A stretch of DNA of 64,000 bases, from IMG/VR virus record IMGVR_UViG_3300008259_002957; one strand, written 5' to 3'. Each line of letters begins with the position of its first letter. The stretch's first letter is position 1. Positions 1 through 50,736 of the stretch are shown here, piece by piece. This DNA is from a virus. Its lineage: Duplodnaviria; Caudoviricetes. Position numbers and translations under genes: made by a program. The notes below the pieces were generated by a model that was given only the letters and a program-made list of their open reading frames with translations, did no database searches and was not told where the DNA came from.

Positions 1-108
1 TTTCAAACTGTATGGCAAAAATATTGGAACATTAAAAAATTATGGACCTGTGCTAGAGCATGTGGCAACACATTTAGTAAACCTGTGGATCAAGTTAACA
101 ACAAATAG
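1..108 (+). CDS. 3' end of a probable radical SAM enzyme (partial, not in ORF track)
   Basis: Frame +1 reads FQTVWQKYWNIKKLWTCARACGNTFSKPVDQVNNK*; W..W...CxxxC matches the C-termini of 16396 (QNWISENRIERCANQCS) and 25543 (DSWQ...KVCAMKCG). Confidence 0.55.
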   Translation, partial: FQTVWQKYWNIKKLWTCARACGNTFSKPVDQVNNK

Positions 109-1142
109 TCCGAATATTCTTTTGCTTTAGGAACACAAACACCACAGCCACAACGCTCGTTTGGGCAAACAATTGGTTGAGGATTTTTTAAATAATTTTT
201 AACCATTGATAATATAGCATCAGTATTATCTAAAGTACCGATAGGTCCTCTTCCTGTAAATTTTGCTTGACAGGTCTGATGATGATACACATTACCAGTA
301 TGTTCTTCGATATGAAGGAAGTAATAGTTTACTTTACAAAACCAATCTTTAAAATGATTATCTACTATCGAAACTGATTTCCATGTATCTGTTTTACCTA
401 CTAGACATCTGCCTCCACAGCAACCTCTTCCTAAACTAGATCCTGCTAAAACAGCATCGCTGGTTTCTTTGGCAATTCCTTGAGTATTCCAATACCATGC
501 ATATTGTTCCGGTGTATATTGGTGCCCAGTTCTGCGTAATACACCTTCGCTATCTTCAAACCAATCGGTACGTTCTTTAACACCGTCACCGAGTGGAGTT
601 GGTACAGCATTTACTCCTGCACTTTTTAAACGATTGTATGCATCTACAGCAATATCCCAGTAGTCTGTGTGCAGCATTACATTGACAGACACCCATAACC
701 CTGCATTGTGTAATGCAATGGCATTTTGTATTGCACGTTCACGTAATTTTTCATCTGCTTCGGTGTGCCAACTTACAGTTACTCCGTTGCAATTTTTTAA
801 TATAAAATCTGTATGCTTTGGATGCCATGTTCCGTTTGTAGTAATGCCTACACCGAAGTTACTGTTTGTTTTAATGTAAGAAATCAAGTCCCAGAAACGT
901 GGATTTACTGTAGGTTCTCCTCCAGTAAAATTTATATTAACTTCTTTAAAGTCGTAAACCGAGACATATTCTTTTATAAATTCAAATGTCTTTATAAGTT
1001 GATTATAGTCTGTAGGCGGGCTATACGTATTGTGTCTAGTGCTTTCGCAATAACTACAATCAAAATTGCAACGTCTTCCGATATCCCATGTGACTAAAAA
1101 CGGTTCGGGCTTTGTTAAATTTATAGCGTTTACTTTTTCCAT
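90..1142 (-). CDS. Radical SAM enzyme, subfamily B (C-terminal auxiliary Cys cluster)
   Basis: WDIGRRCNFDCSYC, FTGGEPT, TTNGT; C-terminal CPNERCGCGVC. Likely start ATG 1142 (MEKVN), overlapping upstream stop; track start 1178. Confidence 0.9.
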   Translation of the reverse strand: MEKVNAINLTKPEPFLVTWDIGRRCNFDCSYCESTRHNTYSPPTDYNQLIKTFEFIKEYVSVYDFKEVNINFTGGEPTVNPRFWDLISYIKTNSNFGVGITTNGTWHPKHTDFILKNCNGVTVSWHTEADEKLRERAIQNAIALHNAGLWVSVNVMLHTDYWDIAVDAYNRLKSAGVNAVPTPLGDGVKERTDWFEDSEGVLRRTGHQYTPEQYAWYWNTQGIAKETSDAVLAGSSLGRGCCGGRCLVGKTDTWKSVSIVDNHFKDWFCKVNYYFLHIEEHTGNVYHHQTCQAKFTGRGPIGTLDNTDAILSMVKNYLKNPQPIVCPNERCGCGVCVPKAKEYSDYLLLT

Positions 1143-2026
1143 TTTGTAATGTTTATATCTGCGGCGCAAGTACACCATTCTCTAGTACACGTTATTTCTT
1201 CTGTTGGAACAGCAAACTCTTGTTTATAAATGTTACCTAAACTTCCACCTACTCTACAAGTTGCACGATGTATTTCGCCGTCCCAGTTAATCATTAAACT
1301 TTCTAAACCTGCACGACAAATCCAATCTTTAAACTGATTGTTTTTGTTTACTAACAGATCGTTAACATTGCACTCAATTGTTTTGTCTATTAATGTGTTT
1401 GCAGGCGGATTGTGATTTACTGTTTTTAAAAATTCACGTTCATCTAAACTATAACGACCGGTGTCGTCAAACACATCGTGGGTTTCTGTCCAACGTATAG
1501 GACGCAGTGCAAATTTTATTTCGTGCTTTGATAGATATTCGATTGCATGTTTTGCTTCGTTGAGTTTTCCCGGAAGCATCATAATATGCACAAGAACTTT
1601 GTTTTTATAAAACGGAACAGCAGTGCTTAGTATTGTTCCTAGTACTCTCTCCCAGTTGTATTCAAAGTGTAAACTAAACACAAGATAGTCAATGTATTCA
1701 CTACATATATCTCTATAAAAATCTACAGTTCGTGTTCCATTTGTTGTAACACTAATCCATTTTACACGTCTTTGTGCATAAGAAAGAATTTTTTTAAATT
1801 GTGGATGCACAGTAGGTTCACCGCCTGTAAAACTAATACGTGGATTTTTCAGTTTTGCAATTTCGTCAATTGCACGTTCTAATACACGCAAGTCTGTGTG
1901 TGTTGAACTGTTGTCATGTATTTCGCTGGGACAATAACTACAATCGTAGTTGCAACGTTTGCCTAGGTTCCATTCTATTTTAATGCTATCTTTATAATGT
2001 GGGTATAGATTTTCTACACTGTGCAT
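1130..2026 (-). CDS. Radical SAM enzyme, subfamily B
   Basis: WNLGKRCNYDCSYC, FTGGEPT, TTNGT, WICRAG, CTREWCTCAAD. Confidence 0.92.
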   Translation of the reverse strand: MHSVENLYPHYKDSIKIEWNLGKRCNYDCSYCPSEIHDNSSTHTDLRVLERAIDEIAKLKNPRISFTGGEPTVHPQFKKILSYAQRRVKWISVTTNGTRTVDFYRDICSEYIDYLVFSLHFEYNWERVLGTILSTAVPFYKNKVLVHIMMLPGKLNEAKHAIEYLSKHEIKFALRPIRWTETHDVFDDTGRYSLDEREFLKTVNHNPPANTLIDKTIECNVNDLLVNKNNQFKDWICRAGLESLMINWDGEIHRATCRVGGSLGNIYKQEFAVPTEEITCTREWCTCAADINITKWKK

Positions 2027-2853
2027 TTTATTACCTTATTAAAATCTTTTAATTTGTTAATGTCTATTTTTTCTACAATCTTAGCAACTGGAATCATTCC
2101 AAGTGCTGCTTTAGATGGATCAACATTTATATTTTTAGAGTTAGCCCAAATCCAAAATTTGTTCTCTTTATCTATAACAAACTGATCGGGTACATCAATT
2201 CCAAACTTTACCATAAAATCAGCACTATATGTACTCTGTGGTCTTATAGCATCTTTGCCAACATTTTCGTCGTTGTCTTTAAAAACATCTAACAACGGTT
2301 TTCCTACTTCGCAATAGTTTATATAAACAGTTCCAAATTCCCATTTATGAGTAAAGTACTTATAATGTTCGTTTTTTAAATTATACGTGGGTCTATCTTT
2401 GAACGTACATACAATAGTAGGATTTAGATGTGTGCTGTCTTTTTCATTTAAATAATTTTCGTATTCGTGAATTAATACATTTAATTTATCAACACTCTGT
2501 TGTACATTAACCGGAGCAGTTGCATACCAATCAGTACCGTAAACAACATGACCTCTAAGATCTTCAAAATGTTTGTGTAAAATATTTAAAAACGTTTGTT
2601 GATTATATTTTTCTAGATCGATAATTTTATCATAACTGTTGATTATATCTATGTGATGTTTTAAACTAGATTGATAGTAGTTTTCGTCTTTGTTAGATCC
2701 AGGCCATTGTGTAAAGCGATCATTTTCGTATAACAAATATTCTTTTTTTATTTCATTTGCCCATAGTTGTGCTATATCTGTTTCAAATATTTTAAAAAAC
2801 AAACTTTTTTTACTTTGATCATTTCCTAAAACCAATTCAAACATATGGTGCAT
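2014..2853 (-). CDS. Hypothetical protein
   Basis: 279-aa ORF overlapping both neighbours in the operon; no recognised motif. Confidence 0.7.
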   Translation of the reverse strand: MHHMFELVLGNDQSKKSLFFKIFETDIAQLWANEIKKEYLLYENDRFTQWPGSNKDENYYQSSLKHHIDIINSYDKIIDLEKYNQQTFLNILHKHFEDLRGHVVYGTDWYATAPVNVQQSVDKLNVLIHEYENYLNEKDSTHLNPTIVCTFKDRPTYNLKNEHYKYFTHKWEFGTVYINYCEVGKPLLDVFKDNDENVGKDAIRPQSTYSADFMVKFGIDVPDQFVIDKENKFWIWANSKNINVDPSKAALGMIPVAKIVEKIDINKLKDFNKVIKCTV

Positions 2854-4102
2854 ATTCTGGAATTACCTTTTCAAATGGTCCTTGATTCCTATTTGAATCT
2901 AAACGTCTATTAAAGTCAACAGTTTTTGGCCACAAATGACTTAGGTCTTTGCCTTTTAAGAAATTTATGTTATCGTTGATTTGTTGTTTAGTAATTGAAA
3001 GTATAGTAGGATGCATATTCATTATTGGATATGCAGCAATTTCATCTTTTAATATTTCTAATTTATTTATAACAACAGTTTTTAGTTCAACAGGTATGCA
3101 TTGTGCAGACAACACATTGGGATAATTTACACGATGACTATAAAACACAATACCCATTTCATTTAAAAAATAAGGTATTGCACTGTCTAGTTGCATTACA
3201 TTGCCTGCCTGAACTGTAAATGCTCCAACAACATACGGAACGTTGGGCATACTTTTAATAATCTTAATATTTTCTTCTACTGTTTTAAAATCGCCGTTGC
3301 TTCTGATATAATCATATACATCATGTATACCGTCAATAGAAACGTTTACTTTTACACTTTTAAACCGAGGCCAATAATCGTGAATAGTTCTTCCGCCTTT
3401 GATTCCTAGTACAGTACCGTTGGTTGCATATTTTAATTCAATGTTTTCACCATACGGAGCAAGCATATCAAGTATACGATAATGGCTTGGGTCCATTAGT
3501 GGTTCGCCACCTGCAAATTCTACTCGTCTAAAATAAGGTAACAGTTTTTCTAAGTTAGCCCAAAAATCTTCACGCTCAACAAACAAATCAATATGCGGAC
3601 GCTTATCTAATCCTAGTTTAGCAACAGCATCGACTAGGTAGTTGTTTTCTTCTCGATAAAACTCAACGACACTGCTCCAATCCTTCCACTGTGTGCTGTC
3701 GAGAGGATTGCACATTCTGCATTTTAAATTACAAAGATTGTTAATTTTAATTTCGATAGTAGGAAGTTCAAAAGGCATTGAATAATCGTCATGCAAACTA
3801 TCAAGTGCAGTTGGATAAAGATTAACTCTACTGTCTGGAAACGTATTTTTAATGTGTCGCTGTCTTAGACTTTCTACACCCTGATCTTCTAAATCAAAAC
3901 AAGGTACGCAAACAGTAGGACGTTCATTGTTTAGCACCTGGCGTCTTACTTCTCGCATTTGATCGTTGTTCCATATTTCTTCTAAACTTTCGTTTTGAAT
4001 CCATCCAACTGGTTGACTGCGACAGCAAACTTTAACAGCACCGTCTTCTCTGGTGGCTAATCCTGTAAACGGATGCATACAAAATGTTTTACTTGAGTGC
4101 AT
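2837..4102 (-). CDS. Radical SAM enzyme, subfamily A (N-terminal twitch-like Cys domain)
   Basis: FCMHPF...KVCC...CVPC then INNLCNLKCRMC, FAGGEPL, ATNGT, SIDG. Confidence 0.93.
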   Translation of the reverse strand: MHSSKTFCMHPFTGLATREDGAVKVCCRSQPVGWIQNESLEEIWNNDQMREVRRQVLNNERPTVCVPCFDLEDQGVESLRQRHIKNTFPDSRVNLYPTALDSLHDDYSMPFELPTIEIKINNLCNLKCRMCNPLDSTQWKDWSSVVEFYREENNYLVDAVAKLGLDKRPHIDLFVEREDFWANLEKLLPYFRRVEFAGGEPLMDPSHYRILDMLAPYGENIELKYATNGTVLGIKGGRTIHDYWPRFKSVKVNVSIDGIHDVYDYIRSNGDFKTVEENIKIIKSMPNVPYVVGAFTVQAGNVMQLDSAIPYFLNEMGIVFYSHRVNYPNVLSAQCIPVELKTVVINKLEILKDEIAAYPIMNMHPTILSITKQQINDNINFLKGKDLSHLWPKTVDFNRRLDSNRNQGPFEKVIPEYAPYV

Positions 4103-4784
4103 GTTTTAATCCCCAGGCTCTTTCTAAACACCAAAAACAATTACCGCAAATAGGAACAGATTGATAGGGTTTATAATTAGTATAATTTAAATCTTCAAAC
4201 TCGCCTTCGCAACTTCTAGTTATATCAAATAAATCTACTATTCCGTTTTCTGCATATCTTCGAACTATCCAGTCTTTTTGAACATTTATAAATGGATGGT
4301 GTACAGGAATACCCATATGTATTAAAACGGGAGGTATGACTGGAATATTTCTCTCTGGAAGAGCACCGTTGAATATTTCGCTAGGATTTAAATTAACACC
4401 AGCATACCATGCATCTAGTTTGTATTTGTGTGCTATGTATTCGTTATATGCTCTAAGTATTATTCTGTTACCTGATTTTAATTTTCCATATTCGTCTGGA
4501 ATTAATGGACTAACAGGTTCTTCTAATTCTGGTGGTACAAAGTTTGTTAAATGTTCAATACGATTGGTATAGCGGCGTTGAAACCAGTGTACTACGTCTC
4601 GTGCAATATATTCTTGCCACGGTCTAGTTTTCCACATTCGTATTTGTGTAGTAAAGTAAATATCAGCAGATGTATTTTCCATTATGAAATAAGCAAGTAG
4701 TGCGCTATCTGCACCACCGCTTAAACTAATACCAATCCTTTGCCAATCTTTATTTAAAGGTATTTCCACACCATCTACGATCAT
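4089..4784 (-). CDS. QueC-like PP-loop ATPase with Zn-binding C-terminus
   Basis: ISLSGGADSALL (PP-loop) and TRSCE...CGNCFWCLER, like the QueC Zn site. Confidence 0.7.
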   Translation of the reverse strand: MIVDGVEIPLNKDWQRIGISLSGGADSALLAYFIMENTSADIYFTTQIRMWKTRPWQEYIARDVVHWFQRRYTNRIEHLTNFVPPELEEPVSPLIPDEYGKLKSGNRIILRAYNEYIAHKYKLDAWYAGVNLNPSEIFNGALPERNIPVIPPVLIHMGIPVHHPFINVQKDWIVRRYAENGIVDLFDITRSCEGEFEDLNYTNYKPYQSVPICGNCFWCLERAWGLKHALK

Positions 4785-4829: not shown

Positions 4830-5492
4830 ATGATACAACCAACAAATTTAATTGTAAGACAAGAATTAATAGAAAAGATGGCAAGTTTCGACGGCGATGA
4901 AATGAAAGTGGTCATCAATGAGCCAACTGGAGATTTTTTTTACGATCCTTGGCGTATTAAACCTGAATTTATTGGAACACCGTTTGAAGCGGCACTAAAC
5001 TTGTTACCCGACGACATTGGAGAAGCACGTATTATTACACTTGAAAGTGGACGTTGCTACTTTTCGCATAGTGATATTGATGACAGGTATCATTTAAACT
5101 TAACAGGCGATTGTGCAGCATTAATTAACATCGAAACACAACAGTCATATTTTTTAAAACCAGACGGAATTTGGTATGACATGGACGCTGGATCTTTACA
5201 TTCGGCAGTAAACTTTGGACAACATGATCGTAAGCAGTTGGTTGTAAGAAAGTTATTAACAAAAAATAAATTAAAAATACCTATAAATGTTTTTATTAGA
5301 GCAACAGGAAAAAATGCAAGATTTGTTTTTGACAATACAATTAGTCCTTGGCTTAACCGTGCAAATAAAAGAGGTATTATAACCGACTTTGAACATAGTC
5401 TATCAAAAGTCTATTTAAAAGTCGAAGAAGAATTTAGCAGCGAGTTAGAAAAAATAATTCCTGAAGAGTTTGAATATGACTTCGATTATTAA
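4830..5492 (+). CDS. Fe(II)/2OG oxygenase, Asp/Asn beta-hydroxylase-like cupin
   Basis: FSHSDIDDRYHLNL (HxD) ... LHSAVNFG (distal His). Confidence 0.75.
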   Translation: MIQPTNLIVRQELIEKMASFDGDEMKVVINEPTGDFFYDPWRIKPEFIGTPFEAALNLLPDDIGEARIITLESGRCYFSHSDIDDRYHLNLTGDCAALINIETQQSYFLKPDGIWYDMDAGSLHSAVNFGQHDRKQLVVRKLLTKNKLKIPINVFIRATGKNARFVFDNTISPWLNRANKRGIITDFEHSLSKVYLKVEEEFSSELEKIIPEEFEYDFDY

Positions 5493-6156
5493 TTGGAGAC
5501 CGTTTTTAAAATATCACGACGGACAACTAGGAATGGCTCAACAAACATACGAACCATTAATAAGTCCAGACGGTAAAACATTTTGTGCAAACTACGATTG
5601 GCGTAATCGATATCAACGTATGAATTCAGAAAGACCATTATATACAAAAGAAGTGTGTGATTATTTTTTTGAACAAGAAGTAAAATATATAAATCTTTTT
5701 AGCAGTAAACCATACGCACCAGAGGTTGTAGACATTGATGAAAAACATAAACGCATTTTTATAAAATGGTATAATAATAATTGTAATCATTCTATATACG
5801 GTGATATGCGTTTAGATTTACAATGGTATGATATGATAAAAGATATTGTTACGGATCAATACAACACAGGTTATTATAAATTAACAATGTACCCTCACTG
5901 TCACTATATTGACAATCACGATAATATGAGAGCAATAGACTGGTATGGAGTTGTTCCGATTGATCGTCCATACATAGAAGAACGATACATGCAAGCAATT
6001 ATTCATGACTCTGCACGTTTTAGACTAGAGGAAACCGGGGAAACAAAAGATAATCTTATAGATTTATCTATAATGTTTAAACGCAGTTTAGAAACTCATG
6101 TACTTTGGGGTAAAAGCAACATGAGTTACATATACAAGGAAATTTTTAATGGCTAG
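5470..6156 (+). CDS. Kinase-like fold protein (remote)
   Basis: APEVVDID..., YKLTMYPHCHYID, MRAIDWYG resemble degenerate catalytic/DFG loops; paralog of 9933-10643. Confidence 0.4.
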   Translation: MNMTSIINWRPFLKYHDGQLGMAQQTYEPLISPDGKTFCANYDWRNRYQRMNSERPLYTKEVCDYFFEQEVKYINLFSSKPYAPEVVDIDEKHKRIFIKWYNNNCNHSIYGDMRLDLQWYDMIKDIVTDQYNTGYYKLTMYPHCHYIDNHDNMRAIDWYGVVPIDRPYIEERYMQAIIHDSARFRLEETGETKDNLIDLSIMFKRSLETHVLWGKSNMSYIYKEIFNG

Positions 6157-6718
6157 TTATTTTGGAACAACAGAAGGCATTATCGATTGGGACAGTGTTG
6201 TTGAACTTTGTATAAACAGCAACGACGGTGACAGAAATACACCAAGTGCTGTTATTGCTAGAAGCGAGTCCGAAGCAGAAGGATTTTTACTAGACAACTA
6301 TCACGAAGTATTAGGGGTGTGGATTAACGCTGGATACAATTTAGATGAAATTGTTTGGAGTGATTATTATCCAGGACATCATTTTGATATCAGCGTTCAA
6401 GATAACTTTGCTGATTTAGTAAATGCAGATCCGCTTCGTGTTTTTGTAAGTGAGGTACTGCCAGGTCGCAATGTTCCGTATCATTGGGATGTAGAAGATC
6501 ACGAGCAAGAATGGCTAGAGCAAGGTGCTATTGAACGTTGGGTCTGTTTTATAGACAAACCACGTTGGGGAAGTGTTCTAATTTTGGAAGATACTGCGTT
6601 TCACGATATTCCGCAACATAAAATTTATAAATGGGACCATTATAGAAGTTGGCATGCCGGAACTAACTGCGGAATACATCCACAATATCTATTTCATTTT
6701 GTAGGAAGACCGAGATGA
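6149..6718 (+). CDS. Fe(II)/2OG oxygenase-like cupin
   Basis: VPYHWD (HxD) ... WHAGTNCG. Confidence 0.7.
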   Translation: MASYFGTTEGIIDWDSVVELCINSNDGDRNTPSAVIARSESEAEGFLLDNYHEVLGVWINAGYNLDEIVWSDYYPGHHFDISVQDNFADLVNADPLRVFVSEVLPGRNVPYHWDVEDHEQEWLEQGAIERWVCFIDKPRWGSVLILEDTAFHDIPQHKIYKWDHYRSWHAGTNCGIHPQYLFHFVGRPR

Positions 6719-7251
6719 CTGTAAATTACATAGGAAATTGTAAACATATCAATTGGGATGTGGTGATTGAAGATTGTGCAAATACAACTCCTGCATACGT
6801 AGGACCTAGCCATAAACGTGGTGACAATCTGCCTGACCTTGATGTAATATTAGATATGTGGGATGCAGCAGAGTATAAAACTGTAGCAGAAGGTGGTACT
6901 GTTGGGTGGGATATGTTTTTACCTGGGCAGCAATTTGATCAAAGTGTAATTGATAAGTTTGTTGAATTTTTTGAAATTCCAAATTACAAAACTGCGTGGA
7001 TTAGCAGAATTAACATTGGAAGGTTTGCTCCGATACACTGGGATGTACATGACGACGAAGCAACATTAGGCGATACCTGTAGATATCACTGTCATATTGG
7101 TAAGCCGGAGTGGGGGCATGTGTTTATCGCCGACAAAAAGTGTTTTTATAATGAAGAACAAGGATCAACCTATCGTTGGGATAGCAGGAGATATTGGCAT
7201 GCCGGAACCAACTGCGGAATAACTCCTAAGTATCTTTTAAATTTGTGGTGA
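6715..7251 (+). CDS. Fe(II)/2OG oxygenase-like cupin (tandem paralog)
   Basis: APIHWD ... WHAGTNCG; ATGA-coupled to 6149 gene. Confidence 0.7.
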   Translation: MTVNYIGNCKHINWDVVIEDCANTTPAYVGPSHKRGDNLPDLDVILDMWDAAEYKTVAEGGTVGWDMFLPGQQFDQSVIDKFVEFFEIPNYKTAWISRINIGRFAPIHWDVHDDEATLGDTCRYHCHIGKPEWGHVFIADKKCFYNEEQGSTYRWDSRRYWHAGTNCGITPKYLLNLW

Positions 7252-7255: not shown

Positions 7256-8131
7256 ATGGAAACAGGTGTAATTAAATGGTATAACGATGCAAAGCGTTAT
7301 GGGTTTATTGTAGCAGACAATGACAACGCTTTAGTTATTGTTGAACAAGATAGCATACAGCACGAACCGCAGGTGTTATTTGAAATGCAAACTGTTGAGT
7401 TCAATAGAGAGCAAGACGCCGAGTATGGTGCAATTGCTAAAGATGTTAAAGTTATTGGAAAAACAGACAGAAACCCAAAAGAGTTCCTTGAAGATTTAGG
7501 TACCGATGTAAATGTAGTAACATATCTTGATATTCCTAGTATTGTGGTTTTTGAAAATGCGTTGCCAGTTGAAATTTGCAATGCGATTATTGCAAAACAT
7601 GAACGAGATAAAATGAATCCAAACAGTGGAGCAGAATCACGTCGTGAAAGTTTTGCACAAGTAACTGAATTAGTTGAGCAACGTGGAATTAGTTTAGGCA
7701 TGGATCCTCGACATTATGATATAGTTGCAAGTACAATTGTAAAATATGCTGAAATACCTTTTAGCCATATTGAAGCCTGTGATATTTACAATTATGAAAC
7801 TGGACAGTTTTTGGATCTTCATCACGATTATCCGTATGATCCAAGACAGATTAATTATTACAAGCACGGCGGCGATAGAGTAGGATCCGGAGTATTTTAT
7901 CTCAACGATAACTTTGTTGGCGGAGAAACAAACTTTCCTAAATTGGGTGTATCGGTAACACCAAAAGCAGGCTCGTTCTTATATTTTAAACAGTGTTACG
8001 ATGAAGAAACCAATTGGAGCACAATACACGAAAGTAAAATTATCACAGAAGGAACAAAGTGGGTGTCGGCATGTTTCTTTTCTGATCAGCCTAGAGTAGG
8101 TTATAATTCTCGTACGGAGTTAGAAAAATGA
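7256..8131 (+). CDS. Cold-shock domain fused to prolyl-4-hydroxylase-like 2OG oxygenase
   Basis: N-term TGVIKWYNDAKRYGFI (CSD RNP1); C-term LHHD, FYLNDNFVGGETNFP, TIHES, GTKW. Confidence 0.8.
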   Translation: METGVIKWYNDAKRYGFIVADNDNALVIVEQDSIQHEPQVLFEMQTVEFNREQDAEYGAIAKDVKVIGKTDRNPKEFLEDLGTDVNVVTYLDIPSIVVFENALPVEICNAIIAKHERDKMNPNSGAESRRESFAQVTELVEQRGISLGMDPRHYDIVASTIVKYAEIPFSHIEACDIYNYETGQFLDLHHDYPYDPRQINYYKHGGDRVGSGVFYLNDNFVGGETNFPKLGVSVTPKAGSFLYFKQCYDEETNWSTIHESKIITEGTKWVSACFFSDQPRVGYNSRTELEK

Positions 8132-8307
8132 GCGAACCGGTTATTACAGACGAGTTTTATTTAAAAAAGTTCATGCAGTTACAACAAGCAAATGTGGTGC
8201 TGTGGAGAAAATTACACAATATTAAAGAAAATGAAGATCTCAGAGCAACTATTGAAACTTATTTAGGCGACGACTTTTTTAATAACTTAGATGACTTAGT
8301 AGGATGA
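8128..8307 (+). CDS. 59-aa small protein missed by ORF track
   Basis: MSEPVITDEFYLKKFMQLQQANVVLWRKLHNIKENEDLRATIETYLGDDFFNNLDDLVG*; ATGA overlaps with both neighbours and fills the gap exactly. Confidence 0.8.
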   Translation: MSEPVITDEFYLKKFMQLQQANVVLWRKLHNIKENEDLRATIETYLGDDFFNNLDDLVG

Positions 8308-8774
8308 CAGTACACGTTGTAGGACATAGTCGAGGCTTAGGTGAATACCTCTATCGTGCATTTACAACAGATATGCACGATGTTAGAGGTTATAGTAGAT
8401 CCAATGGTTATGATTTAGAAAAAGATATTGCTAAGATTTGTTTTCAAGTAGAAGTCGATGATATTGTTATCTTAAATGCATATGCAAACGGAACACAAAT
8501 TGACTATTTAAAATCGTTAGAAAATTCTCATGCAAACATTGTAGTTATGGGCAGTATTGCATCTATATACCCCGACCCAGACGATTTAGTTTATAGTCAG
8601 CACAAAAACACATTAGAATTGTATTTTAATAAGATTTCTGCAGAACCTAAACACCCTATGCTATATCTAAGACTCACAGGTACATCCTACAATGATTACA
8701 AACTTGTTTACGATAGTATAAAGATTTGGTTAGCAAATCCTAGAATTACCACAATAGGTTACAGTGCATTATGA
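8304..8774 (+). CDS. Short-chain dehydrogenase/reductase (compact)
   Basis: VVGHSRGLG Rossmann motif, ILNAY, MGS, YSQHK (YxxxK). Confidence 0.75.
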   Translation: MTVHVVGHSRGLGEYLYRAFTTDMHDVRGYSRSNGYDLEKDIAKICFQVEVDDIVILNAYANGTQIDYLKSLENSHANIVVMGSIASIYPDPDDLVYSQHKNTLELYFNKISAEPKHPMLYLRLTGTSYNDYKLVYDSIKIWLANPRITTIGYSAL

Positions 8775-14094: not shown

Positions 14095-14099
14095 TGTAA

Positions 14100-14149: not shown

Positions 14150-14175
14150 TTAGAAATAATACCACAGGAGATAAA

Positions 14176-43470: not shown

Positions 43471-44124
43471 TTATTTAATGAATTTTACTTCAATAGGCTG
43501 TTTTGTCTTTGTCGGAAAAATATAAGAGTTATCAACGTGTGATATTCTTCTATTAAGACTTTGATTTTTAAAACCTATACCCATTAAAAGTAAGACATCA
43601 TTTTCAAGACTAAGATACTCTTTAACTTTATCTTGATTAAAACAAGAACAACACCCAGTTGAATAGCCTAAAATGCTAGCAGTAAGATTTAAATATCCTG
43701 CGGCTACACCTACAGCAAGATTTCTATCTCTTTCTAACGTCTTTGTGGCTTGATACGAATCAACGGAATTAGTGGTTATTGCTCTAGTTTGATCATTTCT
43801 TGTTGAATCTTTGTCATTGTTTAGATTTTCGTATTTTTCAAAAACAACTAAAAGATTTGCTAGAGTTTGTGTATTTGTAGTGTACTCGGGTGTTGGTTCT
43901 AATGTAACAACAAACCCTTTGGTATTATCATGAATCTCTTCGATGATATTTCTGTTGGTTATAAAATGAAGTCGATAAAACGCTACATTTTGTTTGCTTG
44001 GACATTGTGTTCCAGCAGTTACTAGAAGATTTAGATCGTCTTCGGGTATTTCTTTTGAAAGATCCCAATTACGCTGACAATGTTGACTGCGTATAATAGA
44101 TTGTTTAATATCAATATGATTCAT
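43471..44124 (-). CDS. Nitroreductase-family flavoprotein
   Basis: IIRSQHCQRNWD...AGTQCPSKQN...LGYSTGCC...LLMGIG. Confidence 0.75.
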   Translation of the reverse strand: MNHIDIKQSIIRSQHCQRNWDLSKEIPEDDLNLLVTAGTQCPSKQNVAFYRLHFITNRNIIEEIHDNTKGFVVTLEPTPEYTTNTQTLANLLVVFEKYENLNNDKDSTRNDQTRAITTNSVDSYQATKTLERDRNLAVGVAAGYLNLTASILGYSTGCCSCFNQDKVKEYLSLENDVLLLMGIGFKNQSLNRRISHVDNSYIFPTKTKQPIEVKFIK

Positions 44125-44157: not shown

Positions 44158-45552
44158 TTACATTTTATTTTTGATAAGATAGTGTTTAAACTCCCAAGTT
44201 TTTTCTGTTGAACTATTTGGATACCAATCTGAATATTCTTTAACATATTTTCCTAAGTATGGTTTTGAATTTTCAATTATAAAGTTATAGGGTAAGTCAT
44301 CGGGTTCTAAAATTCCGTTATGTGTATTATCCATCATCCATAAAATTGCACTACATAATGGAGCAACAACTTGTAAACTAGTTGCATTATTGTTTTCAAC
44401 TAAATTTCTAGTTTCGTCAATAGACAATTGACTACCTACCCAATAAGAGCCAAATTCTCCCATTAACAATACGCCTAATTCGTCCATTCCGCCTACTATG
44501 CTATCTGTTATAATTCTAGATTGTGCTTGACCTTTAAGATTGTTTTGTGTAAGTTCATTTAAACTTTCAACTGCTTGGTCGCAAGGATGGTAGGCATAAT
44601 GAACTGTAGGTCTGTATAAAGAATGATCGTCATTAATTGACAAAAATTCTGCTAAAGTTATAGATTCTTGGTGTGTTATTAAAAATCCTTCAAATTCTTT
44701 AGCATTTGGAGCCCAAGATTTTACTTTTGTTGCACATCCGGGATTGTTTAAAAATATAGATGCTTTACTTCCGTGTATATGAGTCACTCCGTTATCCGGA
44801 AGTTCGGGTTCGTGTGACCCCCAACCGAGTTCAGCAGGAAGGATACCTTCAGCAATAAAACCATCTACGCTCCATGTGTTTACAAATTCGTTTGGTTTTT
44901 TCTTATCTAAATCAAATTGTGAATCTCGTTCGGAAACATGTATAACTTTAAGACCTACTTTTTTAGCAAGATCTGCCCAGTCTAGTTGAGATGTTGGAGT
45001 TTCGTTGACATTAAGTTTTTTTGCAATATCAATTAGTGCATCTTTAACTAAATGATTAACTAATCCAGGATTAGCACCGTGTGAAAGAACGGCTGTTGCT
45101 TTATTTTTTGATGTTTTTTTATTTTTTATCATGTCTTCTCTTAGAGAGTAGTTTGTTCTATCTCTAGGATCCATATCGAAGTTATCAAAAAATCCTGGCC
45201 ACGGCTGAATACAAGTGTCTATGTACATAACATCGTTTTTTTGACATTCTTCAACTAAATCTTTTGATGATACATCTACTGTTAAATTAATAACAATATC
45301 GCCTTTTGATGTATATTTTTGTAAAATGTTTTTGTAGTTGTCAATGCTAATATTTTCAATTACTCTTTCGACATCATACTTGTTAGTTATACTCCAATTT
45401 CGACTGTCGTTGGATATAATTGTTATTTTATTAGACTTTATATGTTTTTTTAAGAGAGGAAGCAATGCAACACAGATGCTTCCTGCACCTAAAATAGTTA
45501 TATTATGATTAAATTCTTTAAAAATCGTAGTAACTTGTGTCATTTTCGTCAA
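44158..45552 (-). CDS. hss: Homospermidine synthase
   Basis: ILGAGSI, HGANPGLV, SERD, NTWSVDGF, PAELGWG, LITHQES, YRPTVHYAYHPCD, GMDELGVLL, NATSLQV. Confidence 0.92.
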   Translation of the reverse strand: MTKMTQVTTIFKEFNHNITILGAGSICVALLPLLKKHIKSNKITIISNDSRNWSITNKYDVERVIENISIDNYKNILQKYTSKGDIVINLTVDVSSKDLVEECQKNDVMYIDTCIQPWPGFFDNFDMDPRDRTNYSLREDMIKNKKTSKNKATAVLSHGANPGLVNHLVKDALIDIAKKLNVNETPTSQLDWADLAKKVGLKVIHVSERDSQFDLDKKKPNEFVNTWSVDGFIAEGILPAELGWGSHEPELPDNGVTHIHGSKASIFLNNPGCATKVKSWAPNAKEFEGFLITHQESITLAEFLSINDDHSLYRPTVHYAYHPCDQAVESLNELTQNNLKGQAQSRIITDSIVGGMDELGVLLMGEFGSYWVGSQLSIDETRNLVENNNATSLQVVAPLCSAILWMMDNTHNGILEPDDLPYNFIIENSKPYLGKYVKEYSDWYPNSSTEKTWEFKHYLIKNKM

Positions 45553-46789
45553 ATCCTCTAGTTAAAAAGTCGTTTGAAGTGGTTCTAATAATTTGCCAAT
45601 TGTTAAACGCTTTTTCTGTTAAAATATCTTTGATGGGATGAATATATTGTGTCATTGGTTTTAAAGTCCAGTCTATATCATCTATTGTTTGCATAGTAAG
45701 TTCATGTAGATCTTTATTAAAATACTCTTTTAAGTATTCTTTTATAAATTCGTAACCGGTTAATTTGTTATAATAATTTACATTAGGGTTTCCATATTTT
45801 TTACTAATTTTAAATTTAAAATCATAGTCAACTGTAGTGGTGTTTTTAACATCGTTAATATCGAGAAATGAATATATTTGTTCTGGGCTATACATAAAAA
45901 AATCATATATACAGGTTTTGTTTGTTATATGAGCCCAGGTGGGTGCAGATAATCCGATAGAGTACGAGCAATCGCCTATTACTGGCTCTTTATCTTTGTT
46001 AAATTTTATCTCAACTTGGTCTGATGCCATAACAGGAACAGCACCTATACTGTTTATGTATTCGATCATTAACTGTTGTGTATATAATCCCGGAATTAGA
46101 AAATATGTTTCATATACTCCATTAATAAAATAATCTCTATGACGATTGTTATAAAGATCTTCGAGAATGTTTATTTCTTTTGTAATATGTTTAATATTAT
46201 ATTTTTTACAAAAGTTAATAGCATTAATAACATCGTGGTGATTTAATATATGATCTTTATGTTTGTATACTAATGAAAATCCTATAAAGTCTACGTTTGC
46301 GTCAACAAATGCAAGACCCATTAATTCTGAATCGATTCCACCGCTAAAACATAAGAATATATCTCGATATTTGGATTTAATATCGATTGCACTTTTTTTA
46401 CATTCTTCCCACCAAATTAAATTTTCAGTATTGTCAGGTATAGCAAATCTTTCAATAAAGGGTAGTTTTGGTAATTTTGGTAATGCAGTTAGTCCATATC
46501 CAAAACTTAAATGATTATTTTTTGAAAATTTACATTGATTATCTGTTTTATAATCTTTATTAATAATATAGTAATCGTGTTCTTTATGGTCAAGTAACAC
46601 TTTTATATGTTTATGACTTTCAGTACTTGAGATGAATCGAGGAAATGAATTTTTATCAACAATATCATAGGGAATAATACCGGAATCAATAGATCCGCAG
46701 TTGATATAAATTGCCGGATTTGCAATCGTAGGCGCTGTTAACTTTGACTTTAAATAGCCCTCAACTTCAGAAATGCTTATAGAACTCAT
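45518..46789 (-). CDS. Asparagine-synthetase-like PP-loop ATP pyrophosphatase
   Basis: FLCFSGGIDSEL PP-loop motif. Confidence 0.55.
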   Translation of the reverse strand: MSSISISEVEGYLKSKLTAPTIANPAIYINCGSIDSGIIPYDIVDKNSFPRFISSTESHKHIKVLLDHKEHDYYIINKDYKTDNQCKFSKNNHLSFGYGLTALPKLPKLPFIERFAIPDNTENLIWWEECKKSAIDIKSKYRDIFLCFSGGIDSELMGLAFVDANVDFIGFSLVYKHKDHILNHHDVINAINFCKKYNIKHITKEINILEDLYNNRHRDYFINGVYETYFLIPGLYTQQLMIEYINSIGAVPVMASDQVEIKFNKDKEPVIGDCSYSIGLSAPTWAHITNKTCIYDFFMYSPEQIYSFLDINDVKNTTTVDYDFKFKISKKYGNPNVNYYNKLTGYEFIKEYLKEYFNKDLHELTMQTIDDIDWTLKPMTQYIHPIKDILTEKAFNNWQIIRTTSNDFLTRGFDENDTSYYDF

Positions 46790-47646
46790 TTTACAAAAAG
46801 TTTATTTTGTACAATTTCTTTTAACGATTTTTTATAATTAGAATTAAATCTCCATTCATCGTTGGATTCATTATAATCTAACCACGGAGTAAGACCTAAC
46901 ACTAAATGTATTCTCGGTTCGGTATCTGTAGTTTCTTCTTTTACAGTAACTTGATGCGGAATTATTGTATTCCAAATATATGCTTTACCGACTTCGAGAT
47001 GTTTTTCGATAGATAATTTATTTCCGTACTTGTCTTTGCCTTCGGCCTTTAAAATATGATTACTGTTAGTCTTAAGTGGAATATTAACTCTTAGCAGATA
47101 AAGTGGCAACTCGTCAACATGAATACCCGAAGTATCGGGTAATTTGGTTTTATGTGGATAAAAATAACTTACTCTTGATCTAGACAATCCGCAATTAAAT
47201 TTATTAAACAAATTGTTAAAGTACTTTCTTACAACCGGATGAACATGTCTAAAACCGAATGTATCATAATAGGTATTTTTTATAACACCCGGTAAACTCT
47301 TTTCTCCTCTAATTCCGTAAACTTGAGTCATTTCTTTGGTACCCATAGTTTGATTATACAGCCCTTGATCGCCTATATAGTCTTTATTATAAGTTAACGA
47401 AAATCCTTTGTAATCATCAAATTCGAAGTTTTTAGTAGTCCAGTTGTACAATCCAACTTCTTTTTCTAATTGTAAAATATTTTCTAACATAGTCTCAGCA
47501 GACGGTAGTCCGAGTTCTTCTAGTGTAAATTCGTAAAACAAAAAATCTTTCATGTAATCAGTATAGTCATTGTTTGTTACAAACAAACAATTATCTTCTA
47601 TATGAGTTATCATTGACACATCGTTACTATAATCATGACCTATCAT
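46786..47646 (-). CDS. Fe(II)/2OG oxygenase, beta-hydroxylase-like cupin
   Basis: SGIHVDE, RVNIPL, WNTIIPHQV, RIHLVLG. Confidence 0.7.
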   Translation of the reverse strand: MIGHDYSNDVSMITHIEDNCLFVTNNDYTDYMKDFLFYEFTLEELGLPSAETMLENILQLEKEVGLYNWTTKNFEFDDYKGFSLTYNKDYIGDQGLYNQTMGTKEMTQVYGIRGEKSLPGVIKNTYYDTFGFRHVHPVVRKYFNNLFNKFNCGLSRSRVSYFYPHKTKLPDTSGIHVDELPLYLLRVNIPLKTNSNHILKAEGKDKYGNKLSIEKHLEVGKAYIWNTIIPHQVTVKEETTDTEPRIHLVLGLTPWLDYNESNDEWRFNSNYKKSLKEIVQNKLFVK

Positions 47647-49064
47647 TATACAAGTACTTTCTTTAAAAGTTCGTTTCTTTTTATTTTTCCGTTATAAGAC
47701 ATAGGAATTTTTTTTAAATTTAAATATATCAACCTGTCTATATTATACACTAATTTCATATAGTTGTCTATCCGGTATTTATCGCTATCAGAAACACTTT
47801 TTACAAACACATAATTGTTTTCTTTGTTTTGCACTATAATAACTGTCTTGTTAATAATTTTTTGTAGTTCGTTTTCGATGTTAACTGGATTATATGCTAC
47901 ACTGTTATATAGGAATAGATCTTTATAACGACCAATTAAAACCAAATCACCGTCAACAAGTTTGCCATAATCGCCAGTATTAAACCATCCGTTATCTGTG
48001 TACGGAGTAATGCTAGTATTGGATTCATAATATCCTTGTCCTATAGTATCTCCACGAAGATATACTATTCCTTCTGTTGATGTTTGTTTGTTGTCTAACA
48101 TAAATTTTAATTCTAACCCGTTGATTAGTTTTCCTACGCCTTTCATAGTTCCGTCGTTAATACTAATGGTAGCAGTAGTTTCTGTCATGCCGTAGCCGTT
48201 TACTAGTTTTAGATTGAAGAATTTTTCTATATAGTTTTTACGTTCTTCGGTTAGTGCATCGCCTCCGTAAGAAATGTATCTTATAGATGATGCAGAAATT
48301 TGTTGTTCCTCCATTATAGAAGTGATTCTCGACAGGCTAATTGGAGTCGATGATAACATGGATATCTTATTTTTTTCAAAAGATTTTACGTGTGATCTTT
48401 TAAATTTATTAGCCACAAATACAGAACCCGAAGAGTAAAATATACCAAGTGTAAGATTTAATCCAAATACAAAAGTAGCAGGTAAAATTAAATATAAGAC
48501 GTCTTGTTCAGTAACGGCTCTATTCTTTTTTGTCTTTATTGCTCCAGAAATTAAATTATCTTCAGACAATGCTACAACTTTAATATTTCCACTTGTTCCT
48601 GAAGTATGTAGCATAACACCTGTTTTATCTAATGATGTGTCTATGTTGAGGTTTTTTGTTTTAATATAATTAAAAGTTAACACAGTTCCTATTATTTGTT
48701 CGTCAAAAAATCTTTCTATTTTTTGACTTGCTAAAAACACAAAATTTGGATTTGATTTTTCAACAATTACTGTTAATTCTTTGTTGTTTATTGCAGTACT
48801 AATTAATATAGGAATACCTCCAAGTAATTTTATAGCAAAAAACAATACAAAAAAGTCAATAGAATTATTGCTTATCATCATAATTTTATGATATTTTTTA
48901 ACACCAATTGTTTTTAATATATCGGAAGCAGTTTGAATTTTAATAAAAAACTCGGAATTAGATAACGAAGTTGTTTCATCTAATATTGCAATTTTTGATT
49001 TATGATTAACAGCATTATGCTTTAGAAAATCTACGACAGAATTCATTCTTTTAAGGATTTCCAT
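47646..49064 (-). CDS. AMP-binding (ANL) acyl-CoA synthetase/ligase
   Basis: HTSGTSGNIK, NGYGMTET, FNTGDYG, IGRYKD, PMSYNGKI. Confidence 0.92.
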   Translation of the reverse strand: MEILKRMNSVVDFLKHNAVNHKSKIAILDETTSLSNSEFFIKIQTASDILKTIGVKKYHKIMMISNNSIDFFVLFFAIKLLGGIPILISTAINNKELTVIVEKSNPNFVFLASQKIERFFDEQIIGTVLTFNYIKTKNLNIDTSLDKTGVMLHTSGTSGNIKVVALSEDNLISGAIKTKKNRAVTEQDVLYLILPATFVFGLNLTLGIFYSSGSVFVANKFKRSHVKSFEKNKISMLSSTPISLSRITSIMEEQQISASSIRYISYGGDALTEERKNYIEKFFNLKLVNGYGMTETTATISINDGTMKGVGKLINGLELKFMLDNKQTSTEGIVYLRGDTIGQGYYESNTSITPYTDNGWFNTGDYGKLVDGDLVLIGRYKDLFLYNSVAYNPVNIENELQKIINKTVIIVQNKENNYVFVKSVSDSDKYRIDNYMKLVYNIDRLIYLNLKKIPMSYNGKIKRNELLKKVLV

Positions 49065-49615
49065 TCTTCTGTGCTTATAAAGTTAAATGGTATTTCGCCC
49101 TTAAACATTTTATACATTATTTTTTGATAAGCAGATTTTTTATTTGACCTTGGTACAACATGTACCATTCCGGGATGTATTATCCAGTCATTATAAAACT
49201 CAATCTTTTCTTTTGCTTTTTTAAAATATAACTCTGCTTTGTAGTGTTCTCTTGAATTAAAAACCAAACTAATTTCGTTTTTGTGAAATTCAACTTGCGA
49301 AGGTACAATAAATTGTGGATTTAAAAAATTATATACTTTGGTTCTGTATTCTGGATTGACAAAGGTTCTATTTGAACTTCTAAATATACCTTCGCCCCAT
49401 GCTGGTCTATTATAAAGTCCGCTAAAGCAAACAATCTTTTTGTTATCAACTAGTAAATCGAAAGTCATATGATTTTCAAGGTCAAGAGATCTTAATGAAT
49501 AATTTTCTTTTCTTTTATCTTCTGACAACGACAATTCTTCTAAAAGTAGTAAAAATTTTTTATAAAAATACTGATCAGTTATCTCTCCGTATTTTAAAAT
49601 ATTAACAACCTTCAT
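49043..49615 (-). CDS. GNAT-like fold protein
   Basis: FDLLVDNKKIVCFSGLY...FRSSNRTFV; resembles 9358-9966. Confidence 0.35.
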   Translation of the reverse strand: MKVVNILKYGEITDQYFYKKFLLLLEELSLSEDKRKENYSLRSLDLENHMTFDLLVDNKKIVCFSGLYNRPAWGEGIFRSSNRTFVNPEYRTKVYNFLNPQFIVPSQVEFHKNEISLVFNSREHYKAELYFKKAKEKIEFYNDWIIHPGMVHVVPRSNKKSAYQKIMYKMFKGEIPFNFISTEEWKSLKE

Positions 49616-50736
49616 TTTAACACTTTCGTTTTAATAGGACTAAATCCGTTAAATCTAGTTGAATAAACACTAGTATATGATCCTGTGTTATATATTAAAA
49701 TTTTATCTCCGCTTTTAATATCCTTTGGCAGTAATGGTCGATATTTTTCGTATAAAATGTCAGCACTGTGCAATGTTGGACCAGCAACTATATATGGAAC
49801 ATTTTCGCCACTAGAGTGGGGTGCAGTTATTTTATATTTAAAAATCTCTCCATCTGTACTATAAAGTCCTCCAAATCTTCCTATGTTAAGATACAGCCAT
49901 GTATCTGTATCGTTGATATCTTTTTTACTCACTAGTATAGATTCTGCAATTACAATACCAGAATTTGCAACTAACGCTCTACCCGGTTCTGCAAAAATAT
50001 TTTCAACAGCACCAAATTTTTGTTGTATTGTGTTTTTAATTACGTTACAATATATAGGCACATTGGTGATATCTTCGTCGTACTTAGAAGGAAATCCACC
50101 CCCGATATTAAGGACTGTTAAATTATATCCTTTATTTTTTAATTTATTCCAAAGTGTTGATACTATATCTAAACTATCAAACCACATGTGTGGATGTAAT
50201 GTTTGCGATCCAACATGAAAACTAAGTCCTACTAAATTAATATTTAAATTTTTTGCTTGTTCGAATAGATGTTCTGCCATGTCGGTACTACAGCCGAATT
50301 TTTTATTCAACGGTCTTAGTGCTTCAGTGTCTCCAAGTAGTACACGAATAAACACATCGCTGCCGGGTGCATAGGTTTCTATTTTTTTTAATTCTTCGAT
50401 TGAATCCGCAGCAAACAGTGTTACACCGTTTTTGTAAGAGTATTTTATATCCTTTATACTTTTAATAGTACTACCAAAACTTAATTTTTTAGGATCGGCT
50501 CCTGCTTTAAGACATTGTTTAATTTCGTTGCCACTAGCAACATCAAAATAACTATCTAATTTTACTAACAGTTTTAATACATCGAGGTTTGGGTTAGCTT
50601 TAACAGCATAGTGTATTTTATAATCTTGAAGAGAATTTTTAAAAATATTAAAATTCTCTTCTACAATATTTAAATCAATTACAAGGGTAGGCGAAGATAC
50701 CGATGTTGCAAGACAATAGTTTTCTAGTTTATTCAT
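49612..50736 (-). CDS. Ornithine decarboxylase-like PLP fold-III enzyme (variant active site)
   Basis: YAVKANP, FDVAS, KFGC, FHVGSQ, IGGGFP, EPGRAL; GPTLHSAD replaces the usual GPTCDSxD. Confidence 0.88.
   Translation of the reverse strand: MNKLENYCLATSVSSPTLVIDLNIVEENFNIFKNSLQDYKIHYAVKANPNLDVLKLLVKLDSYFDVASGNEIKQCLKAGADPKKLSFGSTIKSIKDIKYSYKNGVTLFAADSIEELKKIETYAPGSDVFIRVLLGDTEALRPLNKKFGCSTDMAEHLFEQAKNLNINLVGLSFHVGSQTLHPHMWFDSLDIVSTLWNKLKNKGYNLTVLNIGGGFPSKYDEDITNVPIYCNVIKNTIQQKFGAVENIFAEPGRALVANSGIVIAESILVSKKDINDTDTWLYLNIGRFGGLYSTDGEIFKYKITAPHSSGENVPYIVAGPTLHSADILYEKYRPLLPKDIKSGDKILIYNTGSYTSVYSTRFNGFSPIKTKVLK

Follow-up and report, generated by a model that had tools for sequence, protein, structure and literature searches.

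What does a bacteriophage gain from two dozen radical S-adenosylmethionine (SAM) enzymes? The question is raised by a stretch of 64,000 nucleotides from a virus (Duplodnaviria; Caudoviricetes; IMG/VR record IMGVR_UViG_3300008259_002957), which is referred to here as the window and is read from the minus strand of a 76,348-base contig (record G000; bases 463-64462). The contig carries a low-GC (guanine plus cytosine) accessory island of ~60 kb, situated at a fixed site in a T4-like jumbo phage lineage and varying in content, where radical SAM genes lie among genes for other enzymes. Radical SAM enzymes are costly and oxygen-sensitive, usually consuming one SAM per turnover. That 24 of them are retained, and are syntenic across relatives, therefore argues for strong selection for the product of the island.

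Our tentative answer, to which we give a little less than an even chance, is that the island encodes a modular set of tailoring steps for a carbohydrate-type substrate, with a surface glycoconjugate as the end product. The comparison set consists of the related viral records G001-G005 plus further contigs labelled L; among the latter, L001 is the part of the same contig upstream of the window start (~12 kb), numbered in its own coordinates.

Radical SAM genes and their families

A regular expression over all open reading frames (ORFs) finds exactly 20 with the CX3CX2C motif in positions 1-50736, as a sequence-only reading of this DNA had claimed, and 20 of 20 match Pfam Radical_SAM (PF04055). 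Relative to the gathering score of 29.5 bits, 19 of these lie above it in hmmscan, with 25543-26622 reaching 28.0, and a six-frame profile search of the whole contig places 24 of 24 copies over the cut-off. The motif is present in all 20 window ORFs and in all four copies in L001. These four are located upstream of the window, within ~12 kb of its start, and include the subfamily-B gene L001:56-1099, whose last 35 codons form the 3' end at 1-108 (+) that had correctly been suspected, by ORF and family comparison now confirmed, to belong to a 21st radical SAM gene. By motif and profile the 24 genes are radical SAM enzymes, with predicted iron-sulfur (Fe-S) and SAM chemistry. Ordinary bacterial genomes hold a few dozen radical SAM genes per several megabases, and a total of 24 per 76,348 bases gives the contig a density far above theirs.

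All-vs-all BLASTP reproduces the family split proposed earlier for the window, namely nine subfamily A, four B, four C, two B12-type and one singleton, and divides the contig as a whole into ten A, five B, six C plus the singleton, and two B12-type. Paralogs share only 20-44% identity. Subfamily A has the radical SAM motif at residues ~100-160, after an N-terminal domain harbouring four Cys residues (C4, C22, C67 and C70) that are invariant in the ten paralogs. This domain corresponds to Pfam SPASM in three members (residues 8-105) and aligns with the twitch region of BtrN (E 3e-4). NCBIfam NF033640 (N_Twi_rSAM, twitch domain-containing radical SAM protein), with a curated cut-off of 170 bits, recognises all ten members at 204-423 bits. 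In the literature no characterised member of, or paper on, NF033640 was found, nor anything on N-terminal twitch radical SAM enzymes or Bdellovibrio radical SAM clusters. The window members, each matching both PF04055 and NF033640, are 2837-4102 (-; 319 bits on NF033640), 11969-13117 (+), 28680-29804 (+), 30787-32202 (+; 423 bits), 33649-34713 (+), two genes in 36994-39236 (+), the core gene 40090-41280 (+; 294 bits) and 42422-43468 (+).

Subfamily B carries the motif at residues 17-22 and a C-terminal Cys-rich, SPASM-like region, and is represented by 16396-17493 (+; PF04055) and by three tandem genes, 25543-26622, 26630-27652 and 27658-28677 (together 25543-28677, +; PF04055 and BLASTP). In subfamily C the motif lies at residues 24-44, with C...C-x-C towards the C-terminus. 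Its members are 90-1178 (-; CNFDCSYC at residue 37, PF04055 61.2 bits), 1130-2026 (-; 56.7 bits), 29797-30744 (+; PF04055) and the core gene 41310-42422 (+; PF04055), with the singleton 13114-14115 (-; CNLACNHC, 47.3 bits) grouped beside them. The two B12-type genes, 19438-21285 (+) and 32180-33649 (+; PF04055 58.6 bits), score 17 and 31.4 bits, respectively, on PF02310, both under its cut-off of 32.1. The KedN5 and PhpK models are far under cut-off for these genes and NF033712 gives 205 bits for 19438-21285, also under cut-off, leaving the KedN5-family C-methyltransferases as its nearest relatives.

Sequence profile searches of the Protein Data Bank (PDB) with three of the radical SAM families return only generic matches to MoaA, SkfB, CteB and viperin. 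An AlphaFold model of 40090-41280, with a predicted local distance difference test score (pLDDT) of 94, gives matches (Foldseek, VIA) that cover the shared radical SAM core only, with viperin, BlsE, anSME, SkfB, DesII and CteB tied at Z 12-13. Since the structure matches tie on this common core, no substrate is readable from homology.

Possible peptide- or protein-modifying chemistry

Among the fold and profile matches are anSME, CteB, SkfB, SuiB and EpeE, which fits an alternative in which the radical SAM enzymes modify a protein, for example fibre-like proteins in or near the island, or a peptide, in a manner like anSME or like the maturation of peptides synthesised on ribosomes and modified after translation (RiPPs). 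An Asp/Asn beta-hydroxylase-like gene, an S8 protease and the fibre-like proteins at 21280-22725 and 52382-54010 are also consistent with it, as is a conserved ORF of 74 amino acids (aa) at 25326-25550 (+), directly before a radical SAM gene. Located between the gene at 24419 and a subfamily-B gene, this is the sole conserved small ORF of the island by homolog comparison. It retains 67-76% identity in G001, G003 and G005, and the marine contig L115 encodes a close counterpart; it has no family match, and no copy was found in the genuine Bdellovibrionota clusters described below. Its conservation across related phages is, however, uniform, without a variable core, which speaks against a precursor peptide. 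Further points on the same side are that no RiPP recognition element (RRE) or PqqD domain was found, that all NCBIfam peptide-maturase models are far under cut-off, that the S8 protease is absent from G001 and that the fibre proteins hold 0-2 Cys. In addition, an amidinotransferase, a 4,6-dehydratase-like gene and a GT-A fold in the island (GT, glycosyltransferase) indicate small-molecule or sugar chemistry. Modification of a protein or peptide is, on this evidence, quite unlikely.

The fibre-like protein within the island (21280-22725, -; 481 aa) contains six F-x-G-N-x-x-G-N units, mostly 24 aa apart, and has a 26%-identical counterpart of 618 aa in G003 but no match in Pfam or PHROGs. Its C-terminal part lacks repeats, and overall it resembles a fibre or beta-helix protein.

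Putative amidination, amination and sugar transfer

The accessory gene with the clearest identity is 18377-19438 (+), firmly assigned from its sequence as an amidinotransferase of the StrB1/AGAT type. It matches PDB 1bwd (E 1.2e-104) over residues 4-331 and glycine amidinotransferases (AGAT) at E ~2e-69, and keeps the catalytic Cys motif GGFHCVT, with H337 and C338 of GG-x-H-C-x-T invariant in four homologs. The amidinotransferase of the sequence-only reading is thereby upheld. Two genes, 39205-40050 (-) and 17494-18399 (+), are with moderate support short aminotransferase-like proteins dependent on pyridoxal phosphate (PLP). The former, a core gene with an invariant S-L-S-K, matches PDB 3if2 at E 4e-5 and shows 65-78% identity in nine related viral records where recovered; the latter is its paralog by BLASTP, with the SLSK motif. 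Such PLP-like genes stand beside radical SAM genes twice, in the core trio 39205/40090/41310 and in 16396/17494/18377 (genes being denoted by their first position).

Sugar-type chemistry is further suggested upstream of the window, at the far end of the island. L001:8183-9094 is firmly placed with the nucleoside diphosphate (NDP)-sugar 4,6-dehydratases and epimerases of the short-chain dehydrogenase/reductase (SDR) family (136 bits on Epimerase and ~105 bits on the dTDP-glucose dehydratase and LegB models), and L001:11355-11942 is similar to the part of LegC/PseC sugar aminotransferases around the PLP-lysine, an assignment as a fragment that is moderately supported by sequence.

A repeat protein, 22759-24438 (+), ends in a DxD-bearing domain that, with moderate support from modelling, adopts the GT-A fold and is predicted to have transferase activity. 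The last 230 residues (window 23746-24435) were modelled with AlphaFold2 at pLDDT 92 and match B4GALNT1 by VIA with Z 11.9 and a root-mean-square deviation of 2.8 Å over 138 aa, with ThuS/SunS, WrtF and hyaluronan synthase close behind; IspD-type nucleotidyltransferases score almost equally, which tells against certainty that it is a glycosyltransferase. Across 37 sequences the two aspartates of its DGD motif (D60 and D62) are invariant and the glycine between them (G61) almost so. Metagenomes contain more than 5000 homologs of the domain, mostly viral and sharing 60-84% identity, and a GenBank phage, RsoM2USA, has one among unannotated genes; the domain belongs to no Pfam family. The whole protein has no Pfam match and a PDB sequence profile search with the C-terminal domain is empty. 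The N-terminal 330 residues resemble three degenerate copies of a related unit. The conserved partner of this gene, 24419-25339 (+), is Rossmann/methyltransferase-like by motif, its family being without a match in the PDB profile search. A weak GT10 (fucosyltransferase) resemblance is seen in profile leads for 15254-16396 (+), one member of a four-paralog family that likewise gives no PDB profile match, and is treated as a lead only. Thus the glycosyltransferase-like content proposed from sequence holds for one GT-A-fold domain confirmed by structure, and the proposed sugar- or aminocyclitol-like enzyme mix is well represented, by the StrB1-like amidinotransferase, twitch and B12 radical SAM enzymes, PLP-like genes, the 4,6-dehydratase-like SDR and the GT-A fold.

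The StrB1-like amidinotransferase, twitch radical SAM enzymes, PLP genes and B12-type radical SAM enzymes mirror the logic of streptomycin, butirosin and gentamicin, and would also serve to make a free diffusible small molecule (aminoglycoside-like, a guanidino-aminocyclitol or a polyamine conjugate) for use against host, prey or competitors. A polyamine-type block with an AMP-dependent ligase adjoins the island, canonical glycan-assembly machinery was not found, and the phages and the Bdellovibrionota that carry such genes both kill bacteria, all of which agree with a released compound. Yet the contig has no recognised scaffold synthase, exporter or self-resistance gene, it does encode GT-A and GT10-like transferases and fibre genes, and the polyamine block is missing in G003, G004 and G005 while the radical SAM core is kept. 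A free molecule is thus unlikely, and attachment of a tailored carbohydrate to a surface is the reading carried forward.

Position and conservation of the island

The island differs in composition from its surroundings, with a GC fraction of 0.30-0.33 against 0.39-0.41 in the flanks, a drop of 6-8 points that recurs in G001 and G003. Within the window the values are 0.30-0.32 for 1-50736 and 0.39 for the conserved flank at 50737-64000. In G001, which has 381,886 bases and is rated 100% complete, the island lies at ~240-273 kb, with very large, structural-looking ORFs (1911, 687, 553 and 504 aa) on one side and polyamine, fibre and MoxR genes, as in the window, on the other. The related viral records hold 5, 6, 11, 14 and 22 radical SAM genes each, making the 24-gene contig the largest example among those found.

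A conserved core can be separated from variable parts. The core genes 30787, 32180, 34700, 36994, 39205, 40090 and 41310 are 65-93% identical in most related records, with G002, a distant relative, holding only part of the core at lower identity; 41310-42422, for instance, shows 82-87% identity in most related phage records and 64% in G002. Variable between relatives are the amidinotransferase, the polyamine block, the S8 protease and the left-hand genes. Each radical SAM paralog is syntenic across related phages at 70-93% identity, so the paralogs would have distinct jobs. For the orthologue of 40090-41280 alone, hundreds of relatives turn up in metagenomes, sharing 50-94% identity and carried on contigs as long as 271 kb. 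Marine contigs repeat a cassette of a GT-A-like gene, a 24419-like gene, the 74-aa ORF and a subfamily-B radical SAM gene, followed further on by a subfamily-A gene, a 282-aa gene (probably PLP-like) and a further radical SAM gene.

Whether all this amounts to one pathway is a separate matter. The genes are arranged in at least 11 blocks of alternating strand, and the T4 late motif TATAAATA is depleted, occurring three times in the whole window against 12.3 expected from shuffles; RNA evidence is confined to one chimeric metatranscriptome contig of 171 nucleotides (nt). As the modules also differ in conservation, the earlier claim of one late-expressed pathway is not upheld. One of the three TATAAATA copies precedes the start of 39205-40050 by 5 nt. 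The variable presence of modules among relatives, the alternating strands, the lower GC in three phages and the fact that Bdellovibrionota clusters are subsets only would suit an island with no single pathway at all, a hyperplastic 'gene nursery' of independent cassettes (radical SAM core, amidino, deoxy-aminosugar and polyamine modules). In every relative and in the cellular clusters, however, the radical SAM families recur together in conserved local order, and hence at least one shared core pathway can be argued. We give a nursery devoid of a common pathway a low probability.

Counterparts in Bdellovibrionota

When species-representative genomes were scanned with the subfamily-A profile, most of the matches came from Bdellovibrionota, on chromosome-sized contigs. 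Five of these genomes hold 2-16 N_Twi_rSAM genes each, and their multi-gene radical SAM clusters keep the local gene order of the phages, with only subsets of the island genes. Identity to the phage proteins reaches 60-75% for 30787, 65-68% for 41310, 47-63% for 25543, 35-65% for 22759C (the C-terminal domain of 22759-24438) and 24419, and 33-34% for 39205. Existing Pfam annotation of neighbouring genes in these clusters is mostly blank. Phylogenetic analysis of the 41310 family places the viral sequences in a single clade (SH-aLRT 99) nested among Bdellovibrionota; a direction of transfer is only suggested, because the root is placed on very long outgroup branches.

Several paralogs are closer to their Bdellovibrionota counterparts (47-75%) than to one another (20-44%), and the paralog diversity is for that reason taken to be old, inherited or transferred as blocks. 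This contradicts the paralog expansion within the phage that had been proposed. Three contigs of metagenome-assembled genomes (MAGs), binned as Chloroflexota (L033, PAAV01000055.1), Gammaproteobacteria (L069, NZGL01000008.1) and Neisseriaceae (L057, CANEUJ010000032.1), carry phage versions of island genes. The 41310 gene of L033 and L069 falls inside the viral clade, and all three contigs sit with phages or share the phage-only 74-aa ORF, so that they are probably misbinned phage DNA.

The cellular clusters also bear on the proposal that the island hypermodifies phage DNA bases. Radical SAM, PLP and kinase enzymes have known precedent in phage base modification, and the weak QueC/PP-loop matches and a cold-shock domain fused to an oxygenase that depends on 2-oxoglutarate (2OG) could be read in its favour. 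Against it, the tRNA-guanine transglycosylase (TGT)/DpdA family (PF01702) was not found in G000, G001 or G003, and Pfam scans of the contig genes gave no recognised hydroxymethylase, DNA kinase or DNA glycosylase-type transferase, the kinase and aGPT-Pplase profiles not having been searched by name. The island holds no recognised nucleic-acid enzyme save the cold-shock fusion (7256-8131), and homologous clusters reside in cellular Bdellovibrionota chromosomes. DNA hypermodification, one of the outcomes envisaged by the sequence-only reading, is accordingly abandoned as highly improbable.

Proposed pathway

We infer substrate class, order of steps, acceptor and biological role as follows. The substrate would be a nucleotide sugar, an aminosugar or cyclitol, or a glycan already placed. 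The three twitch/SPASM radical SAM families may abstract hydrogen at unactivated C-H positions, leading to ketone oxidation, epimerisation, dehydration or a C-C bond, after which the PLP aminotransferase-like enzymes could turn ketones into amines and the StrB1-like amidinotransferase could convert an amine into a guanidine. Methyl groups would be added by the B12-type radical SAM enzymes and the class-I methyltransferases, and hydroxyl groups by 2OG oxygenases. Finally, the GT-A-fold DxD protein and the GT10-like paralogs would transfer the sugar to an acceptor, most likely an envelope or virion-surface glycoconjugate, with an effect on adsorption or recognition.

In favour of such carbohydrate tailoring are the 24 radical SAM genes, ten of them in NF033640 with four invariant N-terminal Cys residues aligning to the BtrN twitch; the amidinotransferase, the PLP genes beside radical SAM genes, the 4,6-dehydratase-like SDR, the LegC/PseC-like fragment, the GT-A fold and the GT10 leads; and the fibre-like genes within and beside the island. 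The syntenic paralogs and homologous Bdellovibrionota clusters point the same way, as does the fact that no precursor peptide, RRE or TGT/DpdA was found.

Several observations weigh on the other side. No sugar nucleotidyltransferase, 2-deoxy-scyllo-inosose synthase or inositol-phosphate synthase appeared in Pfam/NCBIfam scans of the contig genes, a scan that is not exhaustive, with ~20 genes lacking a family. Canonical GT2 (PF00535) was not found in G000 or G003, and no flippase, polymerase or exporter was recognised. The radical SAM models match the peptide-modifying anSME, CteB and SkfB as well as the sugar-modifying BlsE, DesII and viperin. At E 4e-5 the PLP assignment is weak, motifs underlie most of the 2OG, kinase and methyltransferase calls, and RNA support amounts to the one chimeric 171-nt contig.

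A bolder extension, which we regard as possible although rather improbable, is that giant aquatic phages and predatory Bdellovibrionota share a radical SAM pathway in which a dozen or more successive C-H functionalisations, comprising oxidation/amination, amidination, C-methylation and hydroxylation, would build an unprecedented, dense amino/guanidino sugar or cyclitol. Both bacterial killers would use this product at the attack interface, on fibres or envelope or in released form, and N_Twi_rSAM would constitute a new class of carbohydrate-modifying enzymes.

The phage and the remaining genes of the window

The contig is a fragment of a T4-like jumbo phage genome by its gene content. Flank genes at 50.8-64 kb match phage families strongly (phrog_1297, E 1e-104; phrog_1314, E 6e-116), the MoxR ATPase has its closest cultured relatives in jumbo phages (PA5oct at 51%, followed by Phosso and Atu_ph07), and the T4 Gp23 capsid protein (PF07068) is encoded in two related records (G001, 332 bits; G002, 267 bits), the gene not being on G000 itself. 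These three lines of evidence establish a phage, neither cellular DNA nor a nucleocytoplasmic large DNA virus (NCLDV), in agreement with the T4-like markers noted from the sequence. A T4-type replication marker, a 5'-3' exonuclease gene, lies within the window. The estimated CheckV completeness of 4% for the 76-kb contig implies an implausible 1.9-Mb genome, and the relatives point to one of 270-380 kb. A cyanophage identity was rejected, psbA not being found in the complete relative G001, as was a marine origin, the population being found in lake and freshwater metagenome runs; near-identical DNA is present in such runs from at least 14 studies. No tRNA genes were found in the window.

Searches of GenBank phages gave no nucleotide match and, at protein level, only KVP40-like single radical SAM enzymes at 21-24% identity to the radical SAM proteins, with no match for the core subfamily-C gene 41310-42422. 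No isolated phage with the cluster was found there, and a PHROGs search with ten island proteins or families matched none (0 of 10).

On the right-hand flank, family matches identify an S8 subtilase and an Mtd_N-bearing fibre-like protein (50811-54010, -), and a conserved phage module of a DUF2201 metallopeptidase/VWA protein and the MoxR AAA ATPase (55544-58024, -). At 61491-62588 (-), 18 kb from the island, lies a complete SAM synthetase gene (MetK; three Pfam domains, E 1e-32 to 1e-56), with no counterpart found in G001, G003 or G004. It is suggestive of a phage that may produce its own SAM for 24 SAM-consuming enzymes.

Next to the island, an amine/polyamine-type block of six genes (44158-50736, -) encodes a saccharopine dehydrogenase-like protein, a PP-loop protein, an HxD...H protein, an AMP-dependent ligase, a 190-aa protein and a PLP decarboxylase of the diaminopimelate/ornithine type (49612-50736), the last a firm assignment. 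Five of the six genes are common to G001, the exception being 46786-47646, and G003, G004 and G005 lack the block while retaining the radical SAM core. A nitroreductase-family flavoprotein (43471-44124, -; PF00881) abuts the last radical SAM gene and recurs in G004 and L012 at 48-50% identity; as speculation, it might be a reductant partner for the Fe-S enzymes. Pfam bears out the decarboxylase, ligase, saccharopine dehydrogenase-like and nitroreductase genes.

Of about nine 2OG oxygenases once proposed, two in the window are supported by Pfam, namely a cold-shock domain fused to a prolyl-hydroxylase-type 2OG-Fe(II) oxygenase (7256-8131, +; PF00313 and PF13640) and a TauD-family dioxygenase (14128-15246, +; PF02668 55.1 bits). 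The architecture of the fusion is unusual and hints at an RNA- or single-stranded DNA-linked substrate for that single enzyme. A third, 34700-35593 (+), a highly conserved protein of 297 aa (70-93% identity in relatives), is an Atlas lead to a probable DUF6445/2OG-like oxygenase (HQD...H), with no match in the PDB profile search. The others are motif-only; HxD...H motifs in 4830, 6149, 6715, 10664, 11482 and 46786 serve as leads, and hhalign of the small HxD...H families with the Pfam-supported 2OG gene of the window was not significant. Four small genes at 4830-7251 (+) are assigned by motif, 4830 and the 6149/6715 paralogs as HxD...H cupin/2OG-like and 5470 as kinase-like. The kinase-like and acyltransferase-like genes of the sequence-only reading stand as putative.

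A PP-loop (SGGxDS) ATP-pyrophosphatase-like gene (4089-4784, -; Pfam and motif) has a weak QueC match (E 2e-4), the PP-loop motifs in 4089 and 45518 being leads only. Two short SDR-like paralogs (8304-9382, +) were recognised by BLASTP and weak adh_short/RmlD matches. Two class-I methyltransferase-like genes occupy 35566-36991 (+; Methyltransf_24 E 3.5e-4 and a GxGxG motif), and methyltransferase motifs in 35566, 36287 and 24419 are likewise leads.

Comparison with known systems

Aminoglycoside and aminocyclitol tailoring (BtrN, StrB1, GenK/GenD1) draws on the same enzyme classes as the island. The island differs from the aminoglycoside clusters in lacking a recognised BtrN, GenK or 2-deoxy-scyllo-inosose (2-DOI) synthase ortholog or scaffold synthase, in that the twitch domain is C-terminal in BtrN and N-terminal in subfamily A, and in that the carrier is a phage. 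With NF033640 the likeness is direct, ten contig genes standing above the cut-off with an N-terminal four-Cys auxiliary-cluster domain followed by the CX3CX2C core. This family has a name only, and is met here in a virus, with ten copies in 76 kb. As N_Twi_rSAM has no known reaction, the island offers a co-evolving set of enzymes for finding new chemistry.

With no PHROGs membership for ten families and no isolated carrier found, the system has so far escaped experimental work, and the literature found holds only passing mentions of such phage radical SAM cassettes. A pelagimyophage host-recognition cluster carries 'radical SAM cassettes' (PMC7029224), and cyanophage S-SCSM2R has a trio of AHBA_syn, radical SAM and amidinotransferase genes (PMC12801897). 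These marine T4-like myophage clusters resemble the island in being a variable region near tail-fibre genes with radical SAM cassettes, an amidinotransferase and a sugar aminotransferase. In those papers one to a few genes are mentioned, with no function assigned, whereas the present island, from a freshwater jumbo phage, spreads 24 radical SAM genes over ~60 kb and has a defined conserved core and cellular counterparts. To these earlier descriptions are added the 24-gene example itself, a comparison of five relatives that separates core from variable parts, a GT-A fold for the very widespread 22759C domain, the 74-aa ORF and its conservation, the lower GC of the island, and a SAM synthetase not found in related records.

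Located next to fibre genes in a hypervariable region, and common to predatory bacteria and thousands of aquatic phage contigs, the island encodes a product that may matter for host recognition or killing in both freshwater and marine settings. The Bdellovibrionota clusters share the cassette order of GT-A-like gene, 24419-like gene, radical SAM A, B and C and PLP-like gene, and differ in their cellular context, in their other accessory genes and in the absence of the 74-aa ORF.

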